Positions 4,229 to 48,623 of a stretch of 64,000 nt of DNA are shown piece after piece. Made by a program: the position numbers and the translations under genes. The DNA is taken from NCBI GenBank assembly GCA_963921275.4, contig OZ001293.3, positions 5,728,001 to 5,792,000 of the forward strand, written 5' to 3'. This DNA comes from an uncultured Hormoscilla sp. Its GTDB lineage: Bacteria > Cyanobacteriota > Cyanobacteriia > Cyanobacteriales > Desertifilaceae. The notes beneath the pieces were generated by a model. That model saw only the letters and a list, made by a program, of their open reading frames with translations. It was not told where the DNA came from and did no database searches. Each line of letters begins with the position of its first letter. Positions within the stretch are counted from its first letter, which is position 1.

Positions 4229-6096
4229 GTGCGACTCGTTTCGGCCTAACCTGTACAAACACGGAAAAGCCGAGCCAAAATTGGACTGAATGTTTAGAAC
4301 CAAAACTAATCATAATCGGATGGGGTCGAGCCGGGAATCGCTTCCCGACCCTCCCTTGAGGAACCGGACTTGCGATTTTCACCGCATCCGGCTACTGGGT
4401 ACTAGGCCCTTTTCATAGGTAGACTTAATAGGAATTACTTCCGTTAGCCCTTGCCGCCTGTCTTTTCTTCCCTTTCCTGGTTTAGCGAGTGGTTGTTCTG
4501 ATAACCGTTAGTATCACCATTTTCAAGTCAGTTTTACCAGTTATCCATACCTTATCCTCCACTTGCGTTTCGGATTAGTTCCGTGGCTTTTTAGGATTAC
4601 TCATTCCAGCAGCTTCCTAGTATCACCGACCCACGTCAGCGCTGGCTACCCAGCATCATCTACATTACTGTAGATGTTATCCCAGGAATTACCCCGGGCA
4701 TTCGCTTCTTGGGCCATCCCTCCCCCCGTGGCTTGCGCTTAACATCTAACTTGTCCTGATGGACAGCACACGAGAGGTTACTTCGTTCCCTAACAACATT
4801 TCGCGATACCTTTAGGTCCACACTATACCCCGGGAGCTATTTGAGTACTATATTAGCCAGAGTCTAAAACTAATACTAGCTACCATTTCCTTTTTAGGCC
4901 AGCGCATATAGCCTTATTTCGCTGGTTCCTTATAACGAGGCTTGCACATGTTTGCCTGCTCTAACCTTGGATATCTTTCCTAGCGGCGTCACCGGCTTAG
5001 GCTGCCAGTTATCCTACATTTGAGTCCTCGCTTAGCACCACGATGATGTCGCTTCGTAGCACCGAGGACCGGTGTCACCCCCGTACCTGGGGGGAGGGGA
5101 ATTTAACCCCCATGCGGTCAGAGTTCCCGGCTAATGAAACCGGGCTAGCGTTCCGTGTTTGACCACGTTAGGCTAGAACGAATCGCACAGGCTCAATATG
5201 GTAACTCTGGTCATCATGGGGGTTAAATTCCCTCTCCCCAGGTGTGGGGGTGACACCGGTCCTTAGTGCTGCGGAGTGACATCACCGTGGTGCGGAGCAA
5301 GGACTTAAATGTAGGATAGCTGACAGCCCAAAGTCGGCAACTCCGCTAGGAAAGATGCTCATGGTTAGGAAAACGAATCTGTGAAAGCCTCGTTATGTGT
5401 AACCAGCGGAAGAAGGCTTACACGCTGGCCTAAAAAGGAAATGGTAGCTAGTGTTGGCTGTTGCATATGGCCAACATCACACTCAAAGTAGCTCCCGGGG
5501 TAAAGCAGGGACCTAAAAACATCGTGAAATGATACCAGGGAACGAAGTAACTCCACGTGTGCTGTCCATAACTACTCGACTATCGACCGGTGGTCAGGAG
5601 ATAGGGACCAGTTAGATGATAAGCGTAAGCCATGTGGAGAGAGATGGCCCAAGAAGCAAAGGACAGGGGTAACTCCTTGTATAAGTGGTGCAGGAATGTA
5701 CCGGCAGACGTGGGTCGGATATAGTTGGAAATCTTGGGTGGAAGTATCCCTAATACGTACCAAAAATCAGGAGAAATCCTAGATTGTAATATGGACTAAA
5801 ACTCTAGCCGGGTAAAACTTGAAAAGTCCCCTAATGACGAGACAGGGGCAATGTTAGCAAAGAGCGGTATAAGTGGTTTCCTGGATACCCCCCGCGAACC
5901 TTCCGGAGCTAGATACGAAACAGTCCTATCGACTACCATAAAGGGGAAAAACTGCATAAGAAGAGGGACAAAGGGAGCAATCCCCAGTAATCCTGCCAAT
6001 GACAAGGTCCAACTAACCAGTAGCCGTGTGCGATGAAAACCGCATGCACGGTTTGAAAGGGAGGGTTGGGAAGCGATTCCCAGCTCGACCCCTAAT
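4229..6096 (+). mobile_element. ORF-less group II intron in dnaA (outer; ~1.0 kb net of the nested element)
   Basis: Starts GTGCG; domain V AGCCGTGTGCGATGAAAACCGCATGCACGGTT at ~6022-6053; ends CGACCCCTAAT; precise removal restores the DnaA sequence at the junction; no RT ORF. Confidence 0.92.
4320..5188 (-). mobile_element. ORF-less group II intron nested antisense inside the dnaA intron
   Basis: Minus strand starts GTGCGATTCGTTC, has domain V AGCCGGATGCGGTGAAAATCGCAAGTCCGGTT and ends CGACCCCAT (3' end could be 2 nt further). Near-identical copy at 39171-40040. Confidence 0.92.
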
Positions 6097-11750: not shown

Positions 11751-13894
11751 TGCATGGTCCGGCTACACAAACAAAGCCCACCGGCGCGGGCTTGATGACG
11801 GACACCGAAAGCTCTCCGGAGACATCGAAGCTATGCTCGACGTAAAAAAAGATGACCAAAATTGCTCTACTAATTCAACTACTTTTGAGCCGCACCCATC
11901 ACTTGACGGGACAAAATGTCTATGTCGTAAGGGCAATACGAGTAGTGCGCCCTTTAGGCATCTCAGCCGACTCTGGGCTTTCTCCCTAAATGGCGTTGGC
12001 CTCCAAAGTCGCAGCCTGCGATCGCGCCCCTTAACAATAGAAATATTTTATCCGGGAATAACTGAGTCATTTCCAAAGGTAACTATTCATTTCCAGGAGT
12101 AACTAAATCATTCCACCAAGTACGAGAGTCATTCGGTGGCGTCACAACCTTTGGCTTTGACGTGAGACAAGATTACCGAAGGACAGTTGAGTAACTCCAA
12201 GGCCGGAGTAAGCACCTCCAAGGCCAGAGTAAGCGCCTCCAAGGCCGGAGTAAGCACCTCCAAAGCCGGAGTAAAATCGGGGGTGTGGTCTTGCGCCCGT
12301 TGGTAAGTAGTTCGTAGTTCGACCTTGCGGGCTATATTACATGCATCATCGATGCACCCGGCTATCAACTATTTGTGACCGCACCCTTCTGAGGGCCCAA
12401 AACGTCACCGGTTACTACTTATCACCTGTGGCGAACTTGCTGTTCCCAATGAGGAACCAAAAAATGAAGTATAATTAATTTCTTCCCTAACAAAGCAGGA
12501 AATGCTACTATAGATAGCTAGAAACTTGCTTCCCTCAAGGTCGCCGGTGACCAACCCCTAAAAAAGTTCATCCCTTACATCAGAAGATATTATGGCGACA
12601 TTTAACGTAGACACAGCAGCAGAACTATCCGATGCCATTACCAATTCCGCGGGTAACGGTCAGGCAGATACCATTAACATCACGAGAGATATTACCCTGA
12701 CCGGGTTGCTACCCCTTATTGAAGAAGACGTCCAGCTCACGATAAATGGGAACGACAACACCATTGATGGCTCCGACCAACACCGGCTGTTCTTTGTCCT
12801 CGGCGGTACAGTCAATTTCAATGACCTGACCTTTAGCGACGGTCTGGCCCAGGGAGGCAATGGCGGCGGCGGGGCAGCAGGCATGGGCGGCGCCCTGTTT
12901 GTCTTTGACGGGACAGTCACGGTGACCGATAGCACTTTCCAGGATAATAGCGCCAGGGGTGGCAATGGCAGCACCATTGGAACGGGTGGTAATGCTAATT
13001 TCGTCACTCCTACTGGTAATAATGGCAGCGTCGGCGGCCAGGGCAACATCGGCGGCGGCCCCGGCGGCTTCGGCGGCGACGGCGGCGACGGCGGCCCCGG
13101 CGGCTTCGGCGGCGACGGCGGTTTCGGCGGCAACGGCGGCGTCGGCGGCGGCGGCAACGGCGGCACCGGCAGCGGCGGCGGCCTCGGCGGCTTCGGCGGC
13201 GGCGGCGGCAACGGCGGCACCGGCTTCGGCGGCAACGGCGGCTTCGGCGGCGGCGGCAACGGCGGCTTCGGCGGCGGCGGCAACGGCGGCACCGGCTTCG
13301 GCGGCAGCGGCGGCTTCGGCGGCGGCGGCGGCCAAACCGGCTTCGACCGCTTCGGCGGCGGCGGCGGCGGCGGCGCGGGCCTGGGCGGAGCCATATTCAT
13401 CCGCGAGGGCGAACTCAACGTTTTGAACAGCAGCTTTAACAATAATAACGCTCGAGGTGGCACTGGCGCGAACAACGGCAGAGGTCTGGGGGGCGCAATT
13501 TTCGCCCTGCACATCACCACCAATAGCAACGGAAACAACCAAGGCATGCCCATTAGCCTGCCGATTGTGACCCTCATGGATGTAACCTTCTCGGGCAATA
13601 GCGCCGCTGATAATAATATGGGAGGCCCCACTCCACCGTCCATCATGTTGGACACCATGCTAGACAGTGAAGACCTGTTCGGCAACCGATTCACTACTGT
13701 GAAAGTTCTTAACAACGAGGATTATCAGGCCTTAAGGGCTCTCTATCAAAGCACAGGTGGGGCTACATCTTGGAGGAACAATACAGGCTGGGCTAGCTGG
13801 AATTTCAACAGCCCAACTCCCCCCGTTGCTTCTGTTCTTAACGGTTGGCATGGAGTGACGGTAGCTAACGACAGGGTGATTTGGCTCTTCATGA

Positions 13895-15602: not shown

Positions 15603-15819
15603 TAGGTGATAACCTCAACCTAGACATTAGCAACAACTTCGGCGACATCAATGACAACATCAACAACTACACAGCTACCGGTTTACCAGGGGGCGTAACC
15701 ATCAACTCTCAGGGAGTTATCAGCGGTACCCCTACTACCGCAGGCATCTTTACCGTTACAGTAACCGCCATCGACGCAGTGAGGAATCAAGGGACAGATA
15801 TCTTTGACATTGTTATAAA

Positions 15820-18800
15820 GAACTCCCCTCCTACCGATCTAGAACTCAGCAGCAGCAGCATTGATGAAAACTCCGCATCGGGTGCAGTCGTAGGGACTTT
15901 CTCAACTACCGACCCTGACATTGGAGATACCTTTACCTACCAGTTAGTCACAGGCGACGGTGCCGATGATAACGACGCCTTCACCATAGAAGGGAACTCA
16001 CTGCAAATTAACAGTTCCCCTGACTTTGAGACCCAGTCCAGTTACAGCATCCGCGTCCAGACTACTGACTCGACTGGGAACAGTTACTCGGAAGCCTTGA
16101 CTATTAGCGTCAACGATGTTCCCTCACCTCCGACCTCCATAGTCCTTAGCAACAGCAGCATTGATTCTAACTCCACATCGGGTGCAGTCGTAGGGACTTT
16201 CTCAACTACCGATCCTGACATTGGAGATACCTTTACCTACCAGTTAGTCACAGGCGACGGTGCCGATAATAACGACGCCTTCACGATAACAGGGAACTCA
16301 CTGCAAATTAACAGTTCCCCTGACTTTGAGACCCAGTCCAGTTACAGCATCCGCGTCCAGACTACCGACTCTGTTGGGGCCAGTTACTCAGAAGCCTTGA
16401 CTATTAGCGTCAACGATGTTTCCTCACCTCCGACCTCCATAGTCCTTAGCAACAGCAGCATTGATTCTAACTCCGCATCGGGTACAGTTGTAGGGACTTT
16501 CTCCACTACCGATTCTGACTCTTCCGATCCCTTTACCTACCAGTTAGTCACAGGCGACGGTGCCGATGATAACGACGCCTTCACCATAGAAGGGAACTCA
16601 CTGCAAATTAACAGTTCCCCTGACTTTGAGACCCAGTCCAGTTACAGCATCCGCGTCCAGACTACCGACTCTGCTAGTAACAGTTACTCGGAGACCTTGA
16701 CTATTAGCGTCAACGATGTTCCCTCACCTCCGACCTCCATAGTCCTTAGCAACAGCAGCATTGATTCTAACTCCTCTGATAATGCAGTCGTAGGGACTTT
16801 CTCAACTAGCGATCCTGACATTGGAGATACCTTTACCTACCAGTTAGTCACAGGCGACGGTGCCGATGATAACGACGCCTTCACCATAGAAGGGAACTCA
16901 CTGCAAATTAACAGTTCCCCTGACTTTGAGACCCAGTCCAGTTACAGCATCCGCGTCCAGACTACCGACTCTGCTAGTAACAGTTACTCAGAGGCCTTGA
17001 CTATTAGCGTCAACGATGTTCCCTCACCTCCGACCTCCATAGTCCTTAGCAACAGCAGCATTGATTCTAACTCCTCTGATAATGCAGTCGTAGGGACTTT
17101 CTCAACTAGCGATCCTGACATTGGAGATACCTTTACCTACCAGTTAGTCACAGGCGACGGTGCCGATGATAACGACGCCTTCACCATAGAAGGGAACTCA
17201 CTGCAAATTAACAGTTCCCCTGACTTTGAGACCCAGTCCAGTTACAGCATCCGCGTCCAGACTACTGACTCGACTGGGAACAGTTACTCGGAAGCCTTGA
17301 CTATTAGCGTCAACGATGTTCCCTCACCTCCGACCTCCATAGTCCTTAGCAACAGCAGCATTGATTCTAACTCCACATCGGGTGCAGTCGTAGGGACTTT
17401 CTCAACTACCGATCCTGACATTGGAGATACCTTTACCTACCAGTTAGTCACAGGCGACGGTGCCGATAATAACGACGCCTTCACGATAACAGGGAACTCA
17501 CTGCAAATTAACAGTTCCCCTGACTTTGAGACCCAGTCCAGTTACAGCATCCGCGTCCAGACTACCGACTCTGTTGGGGCCAGTTACTCAGAAGCCTTGA
17601 CTATTAGCGTCAACGATGTTCCCTCACCTCCGACCTCCATAGTCCTTAGCAACAGCAGCATTGATTCTAACTCCGCATCGGGTACAGTTGTAGGGACTTT
17701 CTCCACTACCGATTCTGACTCTTCCGATCCCTTTACCTACCAGTTAGTCACAGGCGACGGTGCCGATGATAACGACGCCTTCACCATAGAAGGGAACTCA
17801 CTGCAAATTAACAGTTCCCCTGACTTTGAGACCCAGTCCAGTTACAGCATCCGCGTCCAGACTACCGACTCTGCTAGTAACAGTTACTCGGAGACCTTGA
17901 CTATTAGCGTCAACGATGTTCCCTCACCTCCGACCTCCATAGTCCTTAGCAACAGCAGCATTGATTCTAACTCCTCTGATAATGCAGTCGTAGGGACTTT
18001 CTCAACTAGCGATCCTGACATTGGAGATACCTTTACCTACCAGTTAGTCACAGGCGACGGTGCCGATGATAACGACGCCTTCACCATAGAAGGGAACTCA
18101 CTGCAAATTAACAGTTCCCCTGACTTTGAGACCCAGTCCAGTTACAGCATCCGCGTCCAGACTACCGACTCTGCTAGTAACAGTTACTCAGAGGCCTTGA
18201 CTATTAGCGTCAACGATGTTCCCTCACCTCCGACCTCCATAGTCCTTAGCAACAGCAGCATTGATTCTAACTCCTCTGATAATGCAGTCGTAGGGACTTT
18301 CTCAACTAGCGATCCTGACATTGGAGATACCTTTACCTACCAGTTAGTCACAGGCGACGGTGCCGATGATAACGACGCCTTCACCATAGAAGGGAACTCA
18401 CTGCAAATTAACAGTTCCCCTGACTTTGAGACCCAGTCCAGTTACAGCATCCGCGTCCAGACTACCGACTCGACCGGGAACAGTTACTCGGAGACATTGA
18501 CTATTAGCGTCAACGATGTTCCCTCACCTCCGACCTCCATAGTCCTTAGCAACAGCAGCATTGATGAAAACTCCGCATCGGGTGCAGTCGTAGGGACTTT
18601 CTCAACTACCGATCCTGACATTGGAGATACCTTTACCTACCAGTTAGTCACAGGCGACGGTGCCGATGATAACGACGCCTTCACGATAACAGAAAACTCA
18701 CTGCAAATTAACAGTTCCCCTGACTTTGAGACCCAGTCCAGTTACAGCATCCGCGTCCAGACTACTGACTCGACTGGGAACAGTTACTCGGAAGCCTTGA

Positions 18801-21800
18801 CTATTAGCGTCATTGATGTTGCTGTAGAGAACTCCGATCCTATCGATATCGACCTCAGCAACAGCAGCATTGATGAAAACGCCCAAGTCAATACTGTCGT
18901 AGGGACTTTCTCAACTACCGATCCTGACATTGGAGATACCTTTACCTACCAGTTAGTCACAGGCGACGGTGCCGATGATAACGACGCCTTCACCATAGAA
19001 GGGAACTCACTGCAAATTAACAGTTCCCCTGACTTTGAGACCCAGTCCAGTTACAGTATCCGCGTCCAGACTACCGACTTTGGTGGGGCCAGTTACTCGG
19101 AGGCCTTTACTATTAGCATCAACGATATTAACGAGTCTCCGACGGACATCGAACTTAGCAACCGCCGCATCAATGAAAACTCCACTGAGGGTACAGTTGT
19201 AGAGACTTTCGGAACTACCGACCCTGACATTGGAGATACCTTTACCTACCAGTTAGTCACAGGCGACGGTGCCGATGATAACGACGCTTTCACCATAGAA
19301 GGGAACTCACTGCAAATTAACAGTTCCCCTGACTTTGAGACCCAGTCCAGTTACAGCATCCGCGTCCAGACTACTGACTTTGGTGGGGCCAGTTACTCGG
19401 AGGCCTTTACTATTAGCGTCAACGATATTAACGAGTCTCCGACGGACATCGAACTCAGCAACCGCCGCATCAATGAAAACTCCACTGAGGGTACAGTTGT
19501 AGGGACTTTCGGAACTACCGACCCTGACGATTCCGATACCTTTACCTACCGGTTAGTCGGAGGCGCTGGTGCCGATGATAACGCCGCTTTCACCATAGTA
19601 GGGGACCAACTGCGAATTAATAGTTCTCCGGACTTTGAGACAAAATCGAGTTACCTCATCCGCGTCCAAACTACTGACTTTGCTGGGGTCAGTTACTCGG
19701 AGGCTTTCATGATTAACGTCAATGATGTTGCCGAGTTTCCTACCGACCTAGTTCTCAGCAACAATAGCATCAATGAAAACTCCCCATTGGGTGCAGTCGT
19801 AGGGACTTTCTCTACTACCGACCCTGACAATTCTGATAGCTTTACCTATCAGTTAGTCTTTGGCAACAACGTCTTCACCATAGTAGGGGACCAACTGCTA
19901 ACTAACAGTTCTTTGGACTTTGAGACTCAGTCGAGTTACATCATCTTCGTCCAAACTACCGACTCGGCTAATAATGCTTTTGAGTCGGTTTTGATTATTG
20001 ACGTGAACGATGTTGCCGAATCTCCTACGGACATCAACCTCAGCAGCAGTAGCATCAATGAAAACTCTCCATTGGGTGCAGTTGTAGGGACTTTCTCTAC
20101 TAGCGACCCTGACGATGGAGATCGCTTTACCTATATGCTTGTCTCAGGCGTTGGTGATGATAATAACGCCTTCACCATAATAGGGGACCAACTGCTAACT
20201 AACAGTTCTTTGGACTTTGAGACTCAGTCGAGTTACATCATCTTCGTCCAAACTACCGACTCGGCTAATAATGCTTTTGAGTCGGTTTTGATTATTGACG
20301 TGAATGATGTTGCCGAATCTCCGACGGACATCAACCTCAGCAGCAGTAGCATCAATGAAAACTCTCCATTGGGTGCAGTTGTAGGGACTTTCTCTACTAG
20401 CGACCCTGACGATGGAGATCGCTTTACCTATATGCTTGTCTCAGGCGTTGGTGATGATAATAACGCCTTCACCATAGTAGGGGACCAACTGCTAACTAAC
20501 AGTTCTTTGGACTTTGAGACTCAGTCGAGTTACATCATCTTCGTCCAAACTACCGACTCGGCTAATAATGCTTTTGAGTCGGTTTTGATTATTGACGTGA
20601 ATGATGTTGCCGAATCTCCGACGGACATCAACCTCAGCAGCAGTAGTATTGATGAAAACTCCCCTGAGGGTGCAGTTGTGGGGACTTTCTCTACTAGCGA
20701 CCCTGACGATGGAGATAGCTTTACCTATATGCTTGTCTCAGGCGTTGGTGACGATGATAACGACGCCTTCACCATAGTAGGGGACCAACTGCAAATTAAC
20801 AGTTCTTTGGACTTTGAGACCCAGTCCAGTTACAGCATCTGCGTCCAAACTACTGACTCGGCTAATAACAGTTATTCGGAGGTCTTGACTATTAACGTCA
20901 ATGATCTCGCAGAGAATTCCCCTCCTACCGATATAGTCCTTAGCAACAGCAACATTGATTCTAACTCTCCATTGGGTGCAGTTGTGGGGACTTTCTCTAC
21001 TACCGACCCTGACGAGGGAGATAGCTTTACCTACATGCTTGCCTCAGGCAACAATGCTTTCACTATAGTAGGGAACCAACTGCTAACTAACAGTTCTTTG
21101 GACTTTGAGACCCAGTCCAGTTACAGGATATTCGTCCAGACTACCGACTCTGCTAATAACACTTTCTCGGAGGTCTTGACTATTAACGTCAATGATGAAG
21201 CATTGAATTCCCCTCCTACCGACATAGTTCTCAGCAGCAGCATCAATATCAGTGAAAACTCCCCAGCCAATACTGTCGTGGGGATTTTCTCCACTACTGA
21301 CCCCGACTCTGGAAATACCTTTACCTACCAGTTAATTTCGGGCTTTGGTGACGATGATAACGCTGCTTTCACCATAGTAGGGGACCAACTGCGAATTAAC
21401 AGTTCTCCGGACTTTGAGACTCAGTCGAGTTACAGCATCCGCGTCCAGACTACCGACTCGACTGGGGCCAGTTACTCGGAGGTCTTGATTATTAACGTCA
21501 ATGATGAAGCATTGAATTCCTCTCCTACCGACCTAGTCCTTAGCAGCAGCAGCATCAATGAAGATTCCCCTGAGGGTGCAGTCGTGGGGACTTTGTCTAC
21601 TACCGATCCCGATAATGGAGATACTTTTACTTACCAGTTAGTCTCGGGCGACGGTGACGATGATAATGCTGCTTTCACTATAGTGGGGGACCAACTGCGA
21701 ATTAACAGTTCTCCGGATTTTGAGACTCAGGAGATTTACAGGATATTCGTTCGGACTTACCGACTCGACTGGGAACAGTTACTCGGAGGCTTTGATTATT

Positions 21801-22150
21801 AATGTGAACAATGTTGCTGAGTCTCCTACTGATATAGTTCTTAGTAATGGCAGCGTTAATTCTAATTCCCGTGTGGGTGCGATCGTGGGGACTTTCGGAA
21901 CTAGCGATCCCGACGGGGGAAATACTTTTACCTACGGGTTAATCTCGGGTTATGCGCTGCGCGCACGCTACGCGATTGGTGACGATGATAACGCTGCTTT
22001 CACTATAGTAGGGGACCAATTGCTAATTAATAGTTCTCCGGCTTTGGAGATGAGGTCGAGTTACAGCGTCCGCGTTCAGACTATTGACGTTACTGGGGCC
22101 AGTTACTCGGAGGCTTTGATTATTAATGTGAACTCAGTTGCCGAATCTTT
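15820..22150 (+). repeat. ~300-bp coding cadherin-like tandem repeats (~21 units)
   Basis: Repeated ENS..G.VVGTFSTTDPD..DFETQSSYSIRVQTTD. Confidence 0.95.
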
Positions 22151-22480
22151 TACTGACCTTAACTTCAGCAATACTCGTCAATCTTTAACTCTCAACCCCC
22201 AACCCCTAACTTTATCACTCTTTGAGAAGGAGGAGGAGGACACTCTGATCGGCGGGGAGGGAAGCGATCGCGTCTACGGAGGAGAGGACGCCGATCTTTT
22301 TGTCTTGGGGTCGGGCATGGGCTGGGATACTATCATAGACTTTGAAGATTACACGGACTTTATCAGGCTAGCAGGAGGTTCTCAGGGCCTCGATACCTGG
22401 ATTAATTTTGAATCGAAAACCATGGCCACCCTGCAGGGGATTGATGAGACCCTGATTAATGATGATTTCACTGTGGTTAA

Positions 22481-32889: not shown

Positions 32890-34341
32890 TTAAGTTTGCA
32901 TCTTCGCCAAGGCAATTTGCCCCAGCAGTTCCCGGTTTACCTTACCCTGCCCATTGCGGGGTAAGCTGTCTACGGCGACCCAATGTTTAGGGCGTTTGTA
33001 CTTGCTTAATTTATCGGCGATCGCCCTTTGTAGCCGATCGATAGAAACGTGATCGGACTTGGGGACGTAGACAACTGTGACTACTTCACCCCATTGGACA
33101 TCAGGTAACCCGATCGCGCAGACATCACTCACCAACTCGGTTGCTAGCAATGCTGCTTCGACTTCAGCGGGAAAGACATTCTTTCCTCCGGTGATGATTT
33201 TGTGACTCTGACGTCCGACAATGTGCAAGTAACCCTGAGGATCGAAATAACCTATGTCATCCGTTCCCATGGAGAAGGCGGCCGATTGGGTTTCGATGTC
33301 TCCGCCATAGTAACCTAATGTTAGGGACTCAGCATCTATGGCGATCGCCCCAGTCTGGTTAACGTCCAGTCTTTCTCCATCCGGGCCAGTTATGGTAACT
33401 TGAGCATGGGGCAAAACCCGACCGCAACTGTTATTACCAGCCAGAAAATCTGCGGGTTTAAGAGTGACTATCCCAGATGCAGTTTCGGTCATCCCGTAGG
33501 TAAGGGCTAAGGGAATATTGTAGTTTCTAGCAGTTGACAGCAGAGAGTCCCAAGCAGGGGCCCCCCCCAAGAGAACAGTTTCAAACCGAGATAACCAACT
33601 ACTATGTTTTTCTAGCAATCTTTGCAGCTGGGTGGGTACGAGAGAAATAAAGAAATTAGTTACATCATTATTGCCGTCACCCGGGATCGACTTAAATGGC
33701 CGAATTACTAGCTTCCCGCCGGTAGTAAAGGAACGCAGGCACTGCATTAAGCCGCTGACGTGATCTAGGGGTAAGACACAGAAAGAATTAATCGCCGTTT
33801 TCCCAAAATACTGTTGAAATCCTTTCACAGATGCCATCAAGGTTTCCCAAGTATGGATGGCAAAGCGAATCTTTCCAGATGAACCCCCCGTGGGAATCAT
33901 GATTTGCACGGCTGGCGCCGCGCTGCCGCGAATGCGCTGCGCGCACGCTACGCGAACAGAAATCAGATCATTTTCAAAGCCCGCGCAGGCGGGCTTCGTT
34001 CCTGTAGCCCCACCCTTTAGGGTAGGGGTGGGGAATGGAAAAGAAGGTGGTTGTCCTAAGATTAGGTCGGGTTGAACGAGGTAAAATACTTGCTGCCATT
34101 CTTGTTCCACCCAATGGGGGTTACATAAAAAAACGGGACAATTAGCTGCCACCGCAGCAATGAACCCAGCTATAAATTTAACAGGTTCTGCTTCAGCTAG
34201 TAGAATAACAGGTGGTTTATCCTGCTGGGCGAATTTCTCGAATAACTCCTGACTTAGCTGAGTGAATTGGTGAGAGTTATCACTTATCAACCAATGATCG
34301 ACCAGACGCTTTTGCCACAGTTCCTTTAATGATTGTCCCAT
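32890..34341 (-). CDS. menE: o-succinylbenzoate-CoA ligase
   Basis: TGGSSG, YGMTET and IITGG.NVFP.EVE motifs; in-frame repeat inserts at ~33908-34032. Confidence 0.9.
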   Translation of the reverse strand: MGQSLKELWQKRLVDHWLISDNSHQFTQLSQELFEKFAQQDKPPVILLAEAEPVKFIAGFIAAVAANCPVFLCNPHWVEQEWQQVFYLVQPDLILGQPPSFPFPTPTLKGGATGTKPACAGFENDLISVRVACAQRIRGSAAPAVQIMIPTGGSSGKIRFAIHTWETLMASVKGFQQYFGKTAINSFCVLPLDHVSGLMQCLRSFTTGGKLVIRPFKSIPGDGNNDVTNFFISLVPTQLQRLLEKHSSWLSRFETVLLGGAPAWDSLLSTARNYNIPLALTYGMTETASGIVTLKPADFLAGNNSCGRVLPHAQVTITGPDGERLDVNQTGAIAIDAESLTLGYYGGDIETQSAAFSMGTDDIGYFDPQGYLHIVGRQSHKIITGGKNVFPAEVEAALLATELVSDVCAIGLPDVQWGEVVTVVYVPKSDHVSIDRLQRAIADKLSKYKRPKHWVAVDSLPRNGQGKVNRELLGQIALAKMQT

Positions 34342-35447
34342 AACTCTTTTAGCCAGTTGTTCTCATTCTCGGTAAACCATTGCTTGACGCCAAAACCAAC
34401 GGCTCTTTGATGTCTCCGGAGAGCGCTAGAAGCACTACTCCCGATGTGCGAATGCGCTGCGCGCACGCTGCGCGGACGCACATCTTCGGCGTCTTCCGCA
34501 TGCTCTTGTCCTGAAGGACGCGGCATGCTCCAGACACCGCGAAGACATCGATTACCTGTTTGTAGTTCGGCGGCTAGCTTTAAGGCCGCATTTCTGCCAA
34601 TGGCGGTTTCCATCACAGAGGAGAATACAATGTCGAGCGGGTGCGATCGGCAAAACTGACGCAAGCGGGATGGCGAACCCGCGATCGCCGCTTTAATTAC
34701 AAATATGGATCGCCAACCTCGATGATAACAGGTTTCGAGGCGATCGAGAGTTGCCACCGATTCATCTAAGGCGATGGGAGTAGCATACTGTTCAGACAAT
34801 TCTTGCATCTCTTCAAACTTTTCTACTCCTAGGGGTTGTTCCATAAATTCTACAGCTTTACCTTCACAAGCATCTAGCCACTGACAAGCTTCTTCCCAGG
34901 TAAGTCCACCATTAGCATCCAAGCGCAATTTTGTCCCCAGCGGCAGTTCTTTTCTCAGTAAGCCAAATATTTTCAGTTCTTCAGCAATGGGAATAACGCC
35001 TATTTTCCACTTAAATGTCCGATATCCCTGATGCCAGAAACCTAGCCATGACTGCAAACTTTCTGGTCCAGCTGGTAACAAGCAGCTATAGGTAAGACTG
35101 TCCTCCTGTAAGCCCGCGCAGGCTGGCTTCGTTCCTGTAGCCCCACCTGTTAGGGTGGGGGTCTCAAAGCCAAACTGACAGGCAGGTAAATCATCAGGGA
35201 TTGCCTTAATGATATCGGATGTTATTTCTGATGGCAAATCAGAGCAGAATGAGTGGCTTTGTTCGCAAGTTTCCGAACCAAACCAGGGTAAAGGGGCAAT
35301 TTCTCCCCAACCGACTTTCCCAGTTGCATCCGTGAGGCGAATAATGATGCCTTGGCGGACATTCCAGCTGCCGTGACTGGTAGTAAGCGATCGCCTAAAT
35401 TTTCGCTGGTAGGGACGAAACTCAAATTGGTAAGCTCCAGCCATCAT
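34326..35447 (-). CDS. menC: o-succinylbenzoate synthase
   Basis: GEIAPLP, FKWKIG, LRLDANGG, EQP and ALDES motifs; in-frame inserts. Confidence 0.9.
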   Translation of the reverse strand: MMAGAYQFEFRPYQRKFRRSLTTSHGSWNVRQGIIIRLTDATGKVGWGEIAPLPWFGSETCEQSHSFCSDLPSEITSDIIKAIPDDLPACQFGFETPTLTGGATGTKPACAGLQEDSLTYSCLLPAGPESLQSWLGFWHQGYRTFKWKIGVIPIAEELKIFGLLRKELPLGTKLRLDANGGLTWEEACQWLDACEGKAVEFMEQPLGVEKFEEMQELSEQYATPIALDESVATLDRLETCYHRGWRSIFVIKAAIAGSPSRLRQFCRSHPLDIVFSSVMETAIGRNAALKLAAELQTGNRCLRGVWSMPRPSGQEHAEDAEDVRPRSVRAAHSHIGSSASSALRRHQRAVGFGVKQWFTENENNWLKELWDNH

Positions 35448-39170: not shown

Positions 39171-40040
39171 ATGGGGTCGAGCCGGGAATCGCTTCCCGAC
39201 CCTCCCTTGAGGAACCGGACTTGCGATTTTCACCGCATCCGGCTACTGGGTACTAGGCCCTTTTCATAGGTAGACTTAATAGGAATTACTTCCGTTAGCC
39301 CTTGCCGCCTGTCTTTTCTTCCCTTTCCTGGTTTAGCGAGTGGTTGTTCTGATAACCGTTAGTATCACCATTTTCAAGTCAGTTTTACCAGTTATCCATA
39401 CCTTTATCCTCCACTTGCGTTTCGGATTAGTTCCGTGGCTTTTTAGGATTACTCATTCCAGCAGCTTCCTAGTATCACCGACCCACGTCAGCGCTGGCTA
39501 CCCAGCATCATCTACATTACTGTAGATGTTATCCCAGGAATTACCCCGGGCATTCGCTTCTTGGGCCATCCCTCCCCCCGTGGCTTGCGCTTAACATCTA
39601 ACTTGTCCTGATGGACAGCACACGAGAGGTTACTTCGTTCCCTAACAACATTTCGCGATACCTTTAGGTCCACACTATACCCCGGGAGCTATTTGAGTAC
39701 TATATTAGCCAGAGTCTAAAACTAATACTAGCTACCATTTCCTTTTTAGGCCAGCGCATATAGCCTTATTTCGCTGGTTCCTTATAACGAGGCTTGCACA
39801 TGTTTGCCTGCTCTAACCTTGGATATCTTTTCTAGCGGCGTCACCGGCTTAGGCTGCCAGTTATCCTACATTTGAGTCCTCGCTTAGCACCACGATGATG
39901 TCGCTTCGTAGCACCGAGGACCGGTGTCACCCCCGTACCTGGGGGGAGGGGAATTTAACCCCCATGCGGTCAGAGTTCCCGGCTAATGAAACCGGGCTAG
40001 CGTTCCGTGTTTGACCACGTTAGGCTAGAACGAATCGCAC
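39171..40040 (-). mobile_element. ORF-less group II intron, second copy of the nested dnaA element
   Basis: Matches 4320-5188 except one 1-nt indel and one substitution seen by eye. Confidence 0.92.
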
Positions 40041-44088: not shown

Positions 44089-45945
44089 ATGCTCTTATTC
44101 CGCAATGTAAATTTAGTTTGGGCTTCAATTTTAGCAGAAACATTAAAGCGACTGGGATTGAAAACGGCGATCGCCTGTCCGGGTTCGCGCTCAACCCCCC
44201 TGACGGTAGCTTTTGCCCAAAACCCCCAAATCGAAGCTATTCCAGTGTTGGACGAACGTTCAGCGGCCTTTTTTGCCCTAGGAATTGCCAAGGGAACGGG
44301 ATTGCCAGTAGCATTGGTTTGTACTTCGGGAACGGCGGGTGCGAACTTTTATCCAGCAGCGATCGAGGCACGAGAAAGTCGAGTACCTCTATTGATTTTA
44401 ACAGCTGATCGCCCTCCGGAACTGCGGAACTGCCATGCCGGACAGGCGATCGACCAAGTAAAATTATATGGCAATTACCCGAACTGGCAAGCCGAGTTAG
44501 CATTGCCATCATTAGAAATGGAAATGTTAGCATATCTGCGACAAACAGTAATTCATGCCTGGGAATGTACCCTGTTTCCTACCCCTGGGGTAGTCCATCT
44601 GAATGTACCATTTCGCGACCCCCTCGCCCCCATCCCACAACCAGAAGCAGAAGCATTAAAATCCGAGTTTTCCGAAGTTGATTTCTTCACAGGAATAGCC
44701 AACATCGATCCAACTCTTTTGCCCGCGCAGGCGGGCTTTGTTCCTGTAGCCCCACCCTTGAGGGTGGGGGTGGCTGCGTGCACAGGGCTACGCCTACGCG
44801 ATCGGGGCATAATTATTGCTGGGGTAGCGCAACCGAGGTGGGCGAAAGAGTATGTTTTGGCGATCGCCCATCTTTCGGAAGCATTAAAGTTCCCGGTATT
44901 AGCAGAAGGACTCTCACCTGTGAGGAACTACGCCCATCTGAATCCTAATATAATTTCCACCTACGACATCATTCTGAGAAATGAACAGTTAGCAGAAAAA
45001 CTCGCCCCAGAAATTGTCATCCAGATTGGAAATTTTCCCACCAGCAAGCAACTCCGGGCCTGGTTAACAGGGAAAAAGCCGCCAACTTGGGTCATAGACC
45101 CCAGTCATCACAACCTGGACCCCATTCATGGTCAAGCAATTCACCTGCGCACATCCATAGAAAATCTTTGTGCTACAATTGAGTCAGGTCAGATGGAGAC
45201 TTCCCCTTACCTGGAAGAATGGTCTGATGCGGAAAAGAAGGTGAGAGAGTCCTTAGACCCAACCCTGGCAGAGATAGATTATTTATTTGAAGGCAAAGCA
45301 GCATGGTTACTATCCCAGACCTTGCCCCCAGGAACGCCGATATTTATTGCCAACAGCATGCCAGTCAGGGATGTCGAATATTTCTGGAAACCAAACAACC
45401 TGGAAATCCAACCCTTCTTCAACCGGGGTGCCAATGGCATTGACGGCAGCTTATCTACCGCTTTGGGGATTGCCCATTCGATGTCTCCTGGAAGCGCTAC
45501 ATGCGCTGCGCGCACCGGGCTACGCCTGCGCGATCGCACTACCCAGGAGACATCTCGGCATCAACCCTGTGTTATGCTAACGGGAGACTTGGCCTTATTG
45601 CACGATAGCAATGGTTTTTTGCTCTCGAATAAACTTGTGGGACATTTGACCATAATCTTGATTAATAATCGAGGAGGTGGTATATTTGAGATGCTGCCCA
45701 TCTCCCAATTCGATCCGCCCTTTGAAGAGTTCTTTGCTACGCCCCAGGAGATTGACTTTGCCCAGCTATGTCCTGCTTATAATGTAGAATATGAATTGAT
45801 TGCAGGGTGGGAACAGCTGCAGGAAAGGTTAAATCCATTACCGGAAACAGGGAGGCGGGTGTTAGAGTTGCGGACTTCTAGAAAGGCAGATGCTAAGTGG
45901 CGTAAGGAGAATTTGGAGAAGTTGGCAGCGATGTCTCCGGAGTAG
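44089..45945 (+). CDS. menD: SEPHCHC synthase
   Basis: PGSRSTPL, DERSAAFFALG, TSGTA, NRGANGIDG and GDLALLHD motifs; two in-frame inserts. Confidence 0.95.
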   Translation: MLLFRNVNLVWASILAETLKRLGLKTAIACPGSRSTPLTVAFAQNPQIEAIPVLDERSAAFFALGIAKGTGLPVALVCTSGTAGANFYPAAIEARESRVPLLILTADRPPELRNCHAGQAIDQVKLYGNYPNWQAELALPSLEMEMLAYLRQTVIHAWECTLFPTPGVVHLNVPFRDPLAPIPQPEAEALKSEFSEVDFFTGIANIDPTLLPAQAGFVPVAPPLRVGVAACTGLRLRDRGIIIAGVAQPRWAKEYVLAIAHLSEALKFPVLAEGLSPVRNYAHLNPNIISTYDIILRNEQLAEKLAPEIVIQIGNFPTSKQLRAWLTGKKPPTWVIDPSHHNLDPIHGQAIHLRTSIENLCATIESGQMETSPYLEEWSDAEKKVRESLDPTLAEIDYLFEGKAAWLLSQTLPPGTPIFIANSMPVRDVEYFWKPNNLEIQPFFNRGANGIDGSLSTALGIAHSMSPGSATCAARTGLRLRDRTTQETSRHQPCVMLTGDLALLHDSNGFLLSNKLVGHLTIILINNRGGGIFEMLPISQFDPPFEEFFATPQEIDFAQLCPAYNVEYELIAGWEQLQERLNPLPETGRRVLELRTSRKADAKWRKENLEKLAAMSPE

Positions 45946-46097
45946 TGCGATGCATGTAGTCCTCTCCGGAGATATCGAAAAAGATAGGGTGAACGCAAGG
46001 GAAGTAGAAATTAATTATGGGTATTCTATATCTCGTAGAGCAAATATTGAGTGCGCTCCGATAGCGCTGCCAAACCCGACTTGATGAGAGGGCATTA

Positions 46098-46934
46098 GTG
46101 CGATTCGTTCTAGTCTAACGTGTTCAAACGCGGAACGCTAGCCTAAGAAACTAGTAACTCTGGTATTCATGGGGTTAAATTCCGCCTCCCCAAGTACGGA
46201 GGTAACTCCGGTTGGAGGTGCTGCGAAATAACATCATCGTGGTGCTAAGCGAGAACTTAAATGTAGGATAGCTGGCAGTCTAAGCTGGTGACTCCGCGCT
46301 CGATGATGTCCAAGGTTAGAACAAGCAAACCTATAGAAGCCTCATTACCTCAAACCGGCGAAATAAGGCTTTATGCGCCGGGGACAAAAGTCAGCGTAGT
46401 TAGTGTTAGTCTTTGTTGTTGGCTAACATCGTACTCAAAGAACTACCGGGGTAGAGTAGGGACCTAAAGGCATCGCGCTCCGGAGACCAGGGAACGAAGT
46501 AACCCCTCGTGAGCTGTCCGTGAGGACCAGTCAGATGTGAAGCGTAAGCCACGAGTGGGAGCCCAAGCCTGCCCCCAAGAAGCAAATGCCTGGGGTAATG
46601 CTTAGGATACGCCGACGTGCGGTGAGGGTGGGTGATAGTAGGAAGTCTCAGGTGAAAGTAACTCTAGATACGTTATAAGCCCGTCACTTCGGTGATTGAG
46701 GAATAGATTACTGGTAAAACGGACGCGATAATAGGTGATACTAAAGGTTTTCCGGCAGCGCCACTCACCAACCAGGAAAGGAGCGAAATTGCATGAGATA
46801 AGGGACAAAGGGAGTAATCCAAAAGTTACCTACCAATGACTTGGGCCTACTACCCAGTAGCCGGATGCGGTGAAAGTCGCTCTTTAGGTTCCGAACGGGA
46901 GGGTTCCGAAGCGATTCCCAGCTCGACCCCTAAT
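46098..46934 (+). mobile_element. ORF-less group II intron, third variant, degenerate domains V/VI
   Basis: GTGCGATTCGTTC start, homologous domain I, CGACCCCTAAT end; domain V 3' strand reads GCTCTTTAGGTT rather than GCAAGTCCGGTT. Confidence 0.85.
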
Positions 46935-47345
46935 CCGATTCCAGATACCATCACCTCGGGCACCGATCTAAACAATGACGACCTGTTCGGCAACCAAATC
47001 ACCGGCACGATCAACTTACCTCCTACCGACCTCAACCTCAGCAACAGCAGCATTGATGAAAACTTCCCAGAAAATAGCCTCGTGGGGACTTTCTCCACTA
47101 CCGACCCCAACTCGGGAGATAGCTTTACCTACCAGCTAGTCTCCGGCGTTGGTGACGATGATAACGCCGCCTTCACCATAGCAGGGGACCAACTGCTAAT
47201 TAACAGTTATAAGGACTTTGAGACAAAATCGAGTTACAGCATCCTCCTCCAGACTACCGACGCTGCTGGGGCCAGTCACTCGGAGGCCTTGACTATTAAT
47301 GTCAACGATGTTCCCCCCTCTCTTACCGACCTCAACCTCAGCAAA
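46935..47345 (+). pseudogene. Fragment of an adhesin paralog (linker plus cadherin repeat)
   Basis: DDLFGN matches EDLFGN at ~13670; followed by one cadherin unit. Confidence 0.8.
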
Positions 47346-47674
47346 GCCACATCGAAAAAATCTTTGGCAATGTCTATACCGAGGGCTGGTAGATTCATAT
47401 GGCCTCTTTTCCTTGACTGGTGATGTTTCCTGAGTTCACTGGTGATGTTAGCAGTTGCGACCGGTGCAGGGTAGAAATGTTTTTCTAGCAACCACCCTTG
47501 TGAATACGAGTTCATCTGTGTTACAGAGACTCCAGATCCCATCCGGTTGTCTAGTAAAAACACGAACGCCGTCGGTGTCTAGATCTGCGCGACAGGTTCA
47601 ATTGACCTCTGGCGGGCTATGGACTTGCCGATAGCTTTCTACCCTGATGTCCCTTCTCTATTCCAACATACAAG
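47340..47674 (-). mobile_element. IS110-family left end with truncated recombinase (ATG at 47398)
   Basis: MNLPALGIDIAKDFFDVALL is an IS110 DEDD N-terminus; the element begins CT-TGTAT inside a REP-like repeat. Confidence 0.8.
47467..47646 (-). ncRNA. Putative IS110 bridge RNA
   Basis: IS621-like scaffold segments (from memory) with guides matching the element end and a host REP; bounded by an 11-bp inverted repeat CAGGGTAGAAA. Confidence 0.72.
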
Positions 47675-47747
47675 GCAAGCTTTGTTCGTGTAGCCTCAGG
47701 CTAAAGCCTGGAGGTGAGGGTGACTGAATGCTGAACGCTAAAGGAAA

Positions 47748-48623
47748 TTATCCCTTAGCTCTTACCAGTGGTAACCCTAAAGTTTCCCGCTGCTCCAGGT
47801 ACAGTTGAGCAACCCGTCGGGCCAAATTGCGAATTCGGCCAATGTAACGAGTCCGTTCTGTCACCGAAATCACCCCTCGCGCATCCAACAAATTAAAGCT
47901 GTGGGAACACTTCAATACATAGTCAAGACTCGGCAACACCAGGCCTCGCTGAGTCAGTTGCTCCGCCTCCTGCTCGTATAGGCCAAACAGAGTAAACAGT
48001 AGATCGGGATTAGATGCCTCAAAGTTATAGGTACTTTGCTCCACCTCTCCCTGGAGGTGAACGTCTCCATAGGTAACGCTGTCAGTCCAGCGAATCTTGG
48101 TGAACGCATCTGTTTCCTGAAGATACATTGTCAGTCGCTCCAGGCCATAGGTGAGTTCAATTGAAACTGGACGACAATCAATCCCGCCGCACTGCTGGAA
48201 GTAGGTAAGTTGGGTAATTTCCATCCCATCAAGCCAGACTTCCCAGCCCACGCCCCAGGCCCCCAAGGTCGGAGACTCCCAGTTATCCTCCACAAACCGG
48301 ATATCATGCTCGGACGGACGCACTCCTAAAGCCCGCAATGATTCCAGATACATCTCTTGGATATTATCTGGTGAAGGCTTAATCAGCACCTGGTACTGGT
48401 AGTAATGTTGATGGCGATTGGGATTTTCCCCGTAACGTCCATCCGTAGGCCGGCGGCAGGGCTCGACATAGGCCACTGACCACGGTTCAGGCCCGATCGC
48501 TCGCAAGAAAGTATGGGGACTCATGGTGCCAGCACCCTTTTCCGTATCGTAGGGCTGGGCGATCAGGCAGCCCCGATCGGCCCAGAACCGGTGCAACGTA
48601 GCAATCACAGACTGAAAATTCAC
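47748..48623 (-). CDS. glyQ: Glycine-tRNA ligase alpha subunit
   Basis: [31 protein letters not shown] and TYGLERL motifs. Confidence 0.97.

Follow-up and report, generated by a model that had tools for sequence, protein, structure and literature searches.

The window analysed here, a 64,000-nt stretch of DNA from Hormoscilla, a genus of sponge symbionts (PMC6520454), carries on its minus strand (47674-47339) an IS621-like element of the IS110 group, of which the left end and the first 20 codons of the recombinase remain. In our preferred reading, to which we give a probability of about 0.92, this is a truncated IS621-type left end, and its leader is predicted to encode a bridge RNA that likely directed insertion at AGCCCGC-CT-GCGCG in a host repeat. 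The first-pass annotation had proposed a bridge RNA programmed against this repeat; most of its reading was borne out, while the donor word and the notion of a working system had to be revised.

Anatomy of the element

The leader measures 274 nt from the left boundary to the ATG at 47398, close to the estimate of about 275 nt made before, and all four guide words (4/4) lie on the minus strand where they had been placed. The outer junction AGCTTGC-CT-TGTAT was likewise found, at 47681-47668 with the core at 47674-47673. The element is located immediately downstream of a 291-aa gene of the same strand (47748-48623), which we take to encode glycyl-tRNA synthetase alpha. The following features were assigned, all on the minus strand:

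47675-47714: left half of the interrupted target repeat (sequence and family consensus; the orthologous site L003 reads AGCCCGC)
47714-47694: first hairpin of the interrupted repeat (sequence)
47693-47690: CTAC (GTAG foot) of the interrupted repeat, abutting the first hairpin
47681-47675: left target, AGCTTGC in the window, consensus AGCCCGC (sequence)
47673-47674: CT core dinucleotide, the left boundary of the element, common to 15 left ends
47672-47668: right donor TGTAT (sequence)
47670-47665: -10-like hexamer TATGTT, overlapping the right donor; putative promoter role by analogy with IS621
47467-47658: predicted bridge RNA (model match 47483-47641; 5′ and 3′ ends deduced)
47646-47636 with 47477-47467: long stem, predicted by folding to close both loops in one junction
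47610-47618: left target guide (LTG) AGCCCGCCA, aligned with the LTG of IS621 and tracking the left flank across orthologues
47592-47585: right target guide (RTG) TCGCGCAG (sequence, leader alignment)
47583-47592: the same guide including the handshake positions AT that follow it, to 47583 (definition from the accessible text of PMC11208158)
47534-47542: left donor guide (LDG) ATGGGATCT; ATAGGATCT in L005 and L007; donor found, ATAGGAT
47505-47497: right donor guide (RDG) ATTCACAAG (alignment with IS621 and orthologues)
47495-47505: the same guide including the handshake positions GG that follow it, to 47495 (alignment)
47414-47403: purine-rich ribosome-binding stretch (sequence)
47398-47339: 20-codon recombinase stub MNLPALGIDIAKDFFDVALL, ending in the 6-nt microhomology TTGCTG

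The leader is predicted to encode a bridge RNA

A covariance model derived from 24 bridge RNAs from outside Hormoscilla, IS621 included, matched 47483-47641 over its full length (46 bits, E 2.4e-11), which was the only strong match in the window; the search suggested by the first-pass annotation thus gave a positive answer. The model alignment comprises 24 of 28 leaders, the mis-anchored rows L034, L040, L046 and L058 having been dropped, and with only nine base pairs it is mostly a sequence profile. An Rfam scan of 45900-48000 returned no bridge-RNA family and only a weak group II intron match. Across all four guides, the window leader aligns in register with IS621 (L061). In the whole genome the model finds five places, two of which belong to a second IS110 family with other guides. 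The leaders L136 (C1:410654-410823) and L137 (C1:4100282-4100440) represent such a second IS621-like family, with right ends reading ACAGTAT-CT-AC, and both are preceded by a group II intron end.

Folding of the leader was more stable than that of shuffled sequences (z = -3.28). The guides had been expected in two internal loops: a two-loop shape with the guides held open costs 8.4 kcal/mol, versus 10.6 for IS621 in the same test, whereas the unconstrained fold pairs about half of the guide bases (0.43-0.53 unpaired). Compensatory changes were observed in 9/9 pairs of the inner hairpins among the orthologues and in 7/9 with the window included. The outer stems were absent from the alignment fold, and inspection by eye revealed no compensatory change in the long closing stem among the copies of the genus.

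The relation between guides and insertion sites was examined with the help of orthologues from cyanobacterial genomes (40-53% protein identity); 55 leaders in all were aligned, and five loci lacking the anchor were skipped. Each LTG matched its own left flank at 5.5 of 7 bases over 29 distinct LTGs, as compared to 2.5 ± 0.26 after shuffling, and 0 of 10,000 shuffles gave such a value; this test ignores relatedness and keeps the one-base-shifted rows L033, L035 and L049 as well as the poor matches L040 and L050. The RTG agreed with the first two bases of the right flank in 45/47 cases, two of them by wobble. A handshake count of 23/28 was set aside as it included the mis-anchored rows L034, L040, L046 and L058. 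In the Hormoscilla element, AT at donor positions 6-7 faces the handshake AT, and the target C at position 7 faces G; both facings fit the rule given in the accessible part of PMC11208158, while the next position departs from it. All copies of the genus have A instead of T as the final base of the guide.

Conceivably, site choice depends solely on the protein or on the shape of the hairpin, the leader matching the target only by coincidence. The target is indeed a hairpin, and a target stem-loop aids insertion of ISPpu10 according to the available text on that element (10.64898/2026.03.19.712850), which also reports base pairing to be essential there; as guides change with flanks across 29 guide types, we consider this explanation highly implausible. 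Altogether, the model match, the alignment with IS621 and the covariation in the leaders argue for the identity of the predicted bridge RNA and the register of its four guides as annotated in the first pass.

The target is a REP-like repeat of the host

The repeat unit consists of a hairpin, CCC..CCC-TAAA-GGG..GGG with a CTAC/GTAG foot, followed after about 9 nt by a second hairpin, AGCCCGC-CT-GCGCGGGCT, in the loop of which the element inserts. The target 14-mer occurs in 107 exact copies in the 7.03-Mb genome, where 0.03-0.06 would be expected from order-3 and order-5 Markov models. CTAC is located 6-11 nt upstream in 92 of these 107 sites, abutting the first hairpin, and 17/107 copies fall in ORFs of at least 150 aa, such ORFs making up 53% of the chromosome. 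Between 84 and 163 repeat copies are present in each of the four genus genomes (4/4); among 300 cyanobacterial genomes from outside the genus, in contrast, only six contain the 18-mer, in one or two copies each. The repeat shows two traits of a REP, namely a GTAG foot beside a palindrome and a high copy number that is mostly extragenic and restricted to a lineage. The empty or degenerate members of the window are:

33978-33995 (-): empty target repeat, exact, with the 14-mer at 33982-33995
44720-44737 (-): empty target repeat within a long ORF, with the exact 14-mer at 44724-44737
35111-35128 (-): empty target repeat with one mismatch, at 35115-35128 as the 14-mer
11775-11792 (+): degenerate member with three mismatches to the 18-mer

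The first three were predicted from the guides in the first-pass annotation and are present as predicted; the fourth was absent from it. All four were read from the sequence. The 618-aa ORF 44089-45945 contains two repeat-derived in-frame inserts (44553-44810 and 45279-45539), one of which is an exact target copy.

Junctions of sister copies and an empty site

Left junctions from relatives of the genus and from this genome read AGCCCGC-CT in 13/15 cases. The two that deviate belong to this genome, and the exact word is found in orthologous copies of each. The 15 left ends represent nine sites distinct by flank, with at least one exact copy at each site. Right junctions read ATAGGAT-CT in 7/7 cases, and GCGCGGGC follows in 6/7; the seventh continues with GC and looks like the L115 site after a short deletion. 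Four elements (L004, L005, L007, L012) keep both junctions, with CT at both ends in 4/4.

An empty site was identified at an orthologous locus: the left flanks of L013 and L014 map to C1:240759-241697 with 93.5-93.9% identity over 900 nt, and the sequence there continues AGCCCGC-CT-GCGCGGGCT with a single CT. The two-ended elements and the empty site show a short core at both ends and no target duplication beyond it. The target loop is therefore complementary to the real insertion site at 13/15 left and 6/7 right junctions and at the empty site, in agreement with the target AGCCCGC-CT-GCGCG that had been proposed. The CT core and the right donor TGTAT, also part of that proposal, are common to the sister junctions. 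The leader is present in three of four genomes of the genus and in 0/56 other relatives, and a metagenome scan with a 19-nt left-end word gave two matches, both in unrelated AT-rich DNA.

The window junction AGCTTGC departs from the target at two positions, which had been taken to indicate a REP variant as insertion site. The mismatches are real; however, later C-to-T changes are more likely than insertion into a variant, because AGCCCGC is present at the orthologous site L003 and no empty copy (0) of AGCTTGCCTGCGC exists in the genome. Since L002 and L003 do not agree in the final 25 nt of the flank, this later decay is likely rather than proven.

Donor, ends and promoter

The right end that survives in this genome (C1:1849991, -) reads TTGACA-TTCTTC-ATAGGAT-CT-GCGCGGGC. 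It was located by reading past the C-terminus of the recombinase, no pattern being used, whereas the patterns applied to right ends elsewhere allowed A or G (ATAGGAT or ATGGGAT). This end confirms the right half of the target and corrects by one base the donor ATGGGAT-CT given in the first-pass annotation. Sister copies thus rejoin to the REP as anticipated, but with right ends finishing in ATAGGAT-CT. The donor loop fits the element's own ends at 7/7 bases in L005 and L007 and at 6/7 in L004; the window value is also 6/7. The donor-guide match in the leader alignment is not independent, because the donor search used a list of expected donors. The word ATGGGATCT occurs 52 times in the genome: two occurrences are guides, one follows TTGAC by chance, and none is located behind an IS110 gene.

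One could assume that the subtype in the window had its own right end, ATGGGAT-CT, which has since been lost. ATGGGAT is present in seven of ten leaders with a donor loop, none of which (0) keeps its right end. Yet ATGGGAT-CT occurs at 0/7 right ends, L012 terminates in ATAGGAT-CT in spite of a target loop like that of the ATGGGAT subtype, and IS621 itself has a G:T pair in a guide (accessible text of PMC11208158), which makes a separate right end improbable. In our preferred reading, the G of ATGGGAT in the window would pair with the ATAGGAT donor as a G:T wobble. This wobble is deduced across copies, since right ends are missing from all copies with an ATGGGAT guide. As the protein search revealed no relatives between 88% and 59% identity, an intermediate donor could not be traced.

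The right end is short, extending about 20 nt past the stop codon in L007. TTGACA is found in sister right ends at a distance of 17-18 nt from TATGTT across the predicted circle junction, which suggests that a promoter may be rebuilt there. At the left end itself there is no consensus promoter (a scan of 47300-47900 gave one site elsewhere, 0.5 being expected). A joint of right and left end, as in a circle, was not listed in the contigs of eight runs; contigs drop rare forms.

Recombinase and truncation of the window copy

The 20 codons in the window have no Pfam match alone but match the N-terminus of sister recombinases throughout. The sister protein of L007 matches PF01548 (DEDD RuvC-like) and PF02371 (serine), both over cut-off, and NF033542 (235 bits vs 140). 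It is about 42% identical to the IS621 recombinase, and comparison with the IS621 structure (E 4.6e-73) showed that the D, E, D, D and S positions are kept. The recombinase start is interrupted in L007 (1181-1230), and also in L005 and L011, by an insert of 50 nt that forms a hairpin and stops the ATG frame. It offers GAGG and an in-frame GTG, where the public annotation P0001 starts, and was skipped in contigs of five runs. Copies at three different sites carry the insert, so that transposition may have continued after it was acquired.

In the window, the reading frame ceases to match IS110 at 47339, on which the first-pass annotation was silent. The last six bases of the stub, TTGCTG, also occur in a cadherin-like repeat running the opposite way, in which the word recurs 300 nt on. 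The following DNA replaces the rest of the element:

46856-47344 (+): foreign DNA, a group II intron-like 3′ end followed by a cadherin-like 300-nt repeat fragment
about 46856-46935 (+): 3′ end of a group II intron-like element (RF00029, 22.8 bits, below the cut-off of 40)
46936-47344 (opposite orientation): cadherin-like 300-nt repeat fragment (PF00028, E 4e-4, under its cut-off)

The fragment 46936-47344 is 76-80% similar to the tandem array of the window at 15.8-21.8 kb. That array (15800-22200) comprises about 17 cadherin-like 300-nt units, a stray one of which forms the junction truncating the element. Several mutually related copies of a group II intron-like element, with a similarity of 77-93% along long arms, are located at 4322-5700, 39173-40040 and 46098-46935. 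The sequence of the junction makes a microhomology-joined rearrangement the likely cause of the truncation.

The genome contains three left ends in total, the other two at C1:6451595 (+) and C1:255820 (-), and the single right end at C1:1849991 (-). The three other copies are all broken, by an internal deletion, by a two-gene insert, and by replacement of the 5′ end by an intron end with stops in frame. The right boundary of copy B (C1:6452180) was not counted as a damaged right end, as it reads equally well as an adjoining response-regulator-like frame. Family searches of the assembly, which is 96.7% complete, found no intact recombinase; PF01548 gave one match, with two stops and no start, and PF02371 four fragments. 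The window copy is thus likely dead, and the earlier suggestion of a working system could not be upheld for this genome. At an orthologous site common to three genomes (L008, L009 and L010; G000:C1:255530-254150), the recombinase has lost its first half, in whose place stand two foreign genes of 226 and 225 aa. In L003 and L006, the left target guide is overwritten by GCGATCGC, presumably the HIP1 palindrome; this overwriting is a route of guide decay special to cyanobacteria.

The bridge RNA of the window might still be used in trans, by read-through from the 47748-48623 gene together with a recombinase encoded elsewhere. The leader is intact in the window copy, and read-through suffices for IS621 excision in the accessible part of PMC13626964. 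A sister leader and its gene are covered by contigs X9 and X10, assembled from an RNA run of one sample from another strain; as these show neither strand nor level and could be DNA, they were not counted as evidence. Considering the damaged PF01548 and PF02371 remnants and the few surviving ends described above, we judge such use in trans very unlikely.

Proposed mechanism of insertion

The model follows IS621, for which a circle, a rebuilt promoter and RNA-guided pairing of target and donor have been described (PMC11208160, PMC11208158, PMC13626964, as far as their accessible text goes). By analogy, excision as a circle would join ATAGGAT-CT-TGTAT and set TTGACA 17-18 nt from TATGTT, and the joined promoter would switch on an RNA of roughly 190 nt. 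By sequence comparison, the target loop, AGCCCGC(CA) with (T)CGCGCAG, matches both sides of CT in the second-hairpin loop, and the donor loop, AT(A/G)GGATCT with ATT(T/C)ACAAG, matches the element's own ends. The DEDD/serine recombinase would then exchange strands at CT, giving AGCCCGC-CT-TGTAT and ATAGGAT-CT-GCGCG; these are the junctions observed in sister copies, with the empty site at the orthologous locus. The window copy would later have lost everything beyond codon 20 by the microhomology-joined rearrangement and gained the two C-to-T changes in its left flank.

A Y1 transposase gene beside the repeat

One of the two Y1 genes in the genome (C1:241783-242193) is flanked by inverted repeat arrays, with two copies upstream and six downstream:

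L082:1240-2430 (G000:C1:241534-242724): subclass-1.2-type TnpA-Y1 gene between inverted repeat arrays

The gene carries the Y---Q--HH signature of subclass 1.2, to which it is assigned by signature only, and scores with the IS200 model and not with the RAYT model NF047646. Its HuH motif is damaged here (DQDH); the G003 orthologue, broken at an intron end (L107), reads DHVH. The second Y1 match (L083:1378-1848, C1:1348544-1348780) is weak and RAYT-like (NF047646, 43 bits, under the cut-off of 80). In the accessible part of Quentin 2018 (PMC6006769), subclass 1.2 TnpA-Y1 is listed without REPs.

A repeat of the two-hairpin type, read by eye, adjoins each of the six Y1 homologues from outside the genus that are closest (46-65%); for 18 more remote homologues, the scan of the flanks covered simple GTAG hairpins only. 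These adjoining repeats are dispersed in some genomes (9, 5, 28, 35 and 12 copies) and single in G025, which weakens the reading as a REPtron. In G002 and G004, an IS110 left end (L013:1390-1550, L014) occupies the second of the upstream repeats at the Y1 locus, and DNA of the Y1 gene itself was not found in these two genomes.

Tentatively, three nested layers can be envisaged, although we hold this picture to be somewhat less probable than not. A subclass-1.2 TnpA-Y1 might be the enzyme that disperses a GTAG repeat of two hairpins in filamentous cyanobacteria; the IS110 of Hormoscilla might have naturally reprogrammed both its target and its donor loop for the second hairpin; and in G002 and G004 it might have landed beside the Y1 gene, which was then lost, so that a guided parasite would have eliminated the very enzyme that spreads its target.

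Comparison with known systems

Judged by the accessible text of the IS621 papers (Durrant 2024, PMC11208160; Hiraizumi 2024, PMC11208158) and by L061, the Hormoscilla element shares with IS621 of E. coli the IS110 group, a long left end, the CT core, the right donor TGTAT, the order LTG-hairpin-RTG and LDG-hairpin-RDG, the scaffold words AACCTG, AGAT, CGTATT and CAAGG, AT at positions 6-7 of the donor opposite the handshake AT, a putative split promoter and a REP target. It differs in its left donor, ATAGGAT instead of ACAGTAT (donor guides start with ACAG or ACGG in all 44 leaders from outside the genus), and in its position: IS621 inserts at the GTAG foot (CT-AC), the Hormoscilla element in the loop of the second hairpin (CT-GC). 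Furthermore, its target-loop guide ends in CA, a long closing stem is predicted instead of a separate 5′ hairpin, and the window copy is truncated.

The cyanobacterial IS621-like orthologues (L032-L081, 40-53% protein identity) have the same scaffold and core, and their guides track their flanks. Several sit in GTAG-type palindromes (G433, G302, G161), some visibly at the GTAG foot. In contrast to the Hormoscilla element, they have AC(A/G)G(T/C)AT donors, 30 of the 43 with a right end insert before AC, and none has its target or donor. ISPpu10 and ISPpu9 of Pseudomonas putida are likewise IS110 elements landing in dispersed extragenic REPs (available text of 10.64898/2026.03.19.712850 and PMC12288879); the ISPpu10 stem pairs the left target with upstream DNA, whereas left and right target of the Hormoscilla element are the arms of one hairpin. 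With REPtrons, as described in the accessible parts of Quentin 2018 (PMC6006769) and Di Nocera 2013 (PMC3733652), the host repeat has in common a palindrome with a GTAG foot, a copy number above 100 with most copies outside genes, and inverted arrays on both sides of one Y1 HUH gene. Unlike in REPtrons, the unit is made up of two hairpins, spaced by about 9 nt, and the Y1 gene between the arrays has the subclass 1.2 signature.

The target word and the donor junction were not found in the part of the Durrant 2024 target and donor lists that was searched, cyanobacteria are unmentioned in the main text of that paper (PMC11208160), and no description of the Hormoscilla element was found in the literature searched. 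The mechanism is published and was first described for an IS110 bridge RNA that targets REPs (PMC11208160, PMC11208158, accessible text), so that the Hormoscilla element adds an example rather than a principle. The novelty is modest and lies in the words used as target and donor, in an insertion point within a hairpin loop where IS621 uses the GTAG foot, and in a repeat that flanks a subclass-1.2-type TnpA-Y1 gene. The element nevertheless provides a clean natural case in which both loops were reprogrammed together, and a recombinase with a different native donor would be a small addition to the bridge-editing toolbox, the reading frame of the L007 sister being open. The more useful lead is that the target points to a candidate mobilising enzyme, in a TnpA-Y1 subclass, for a widespread cyanobacterial repeat.
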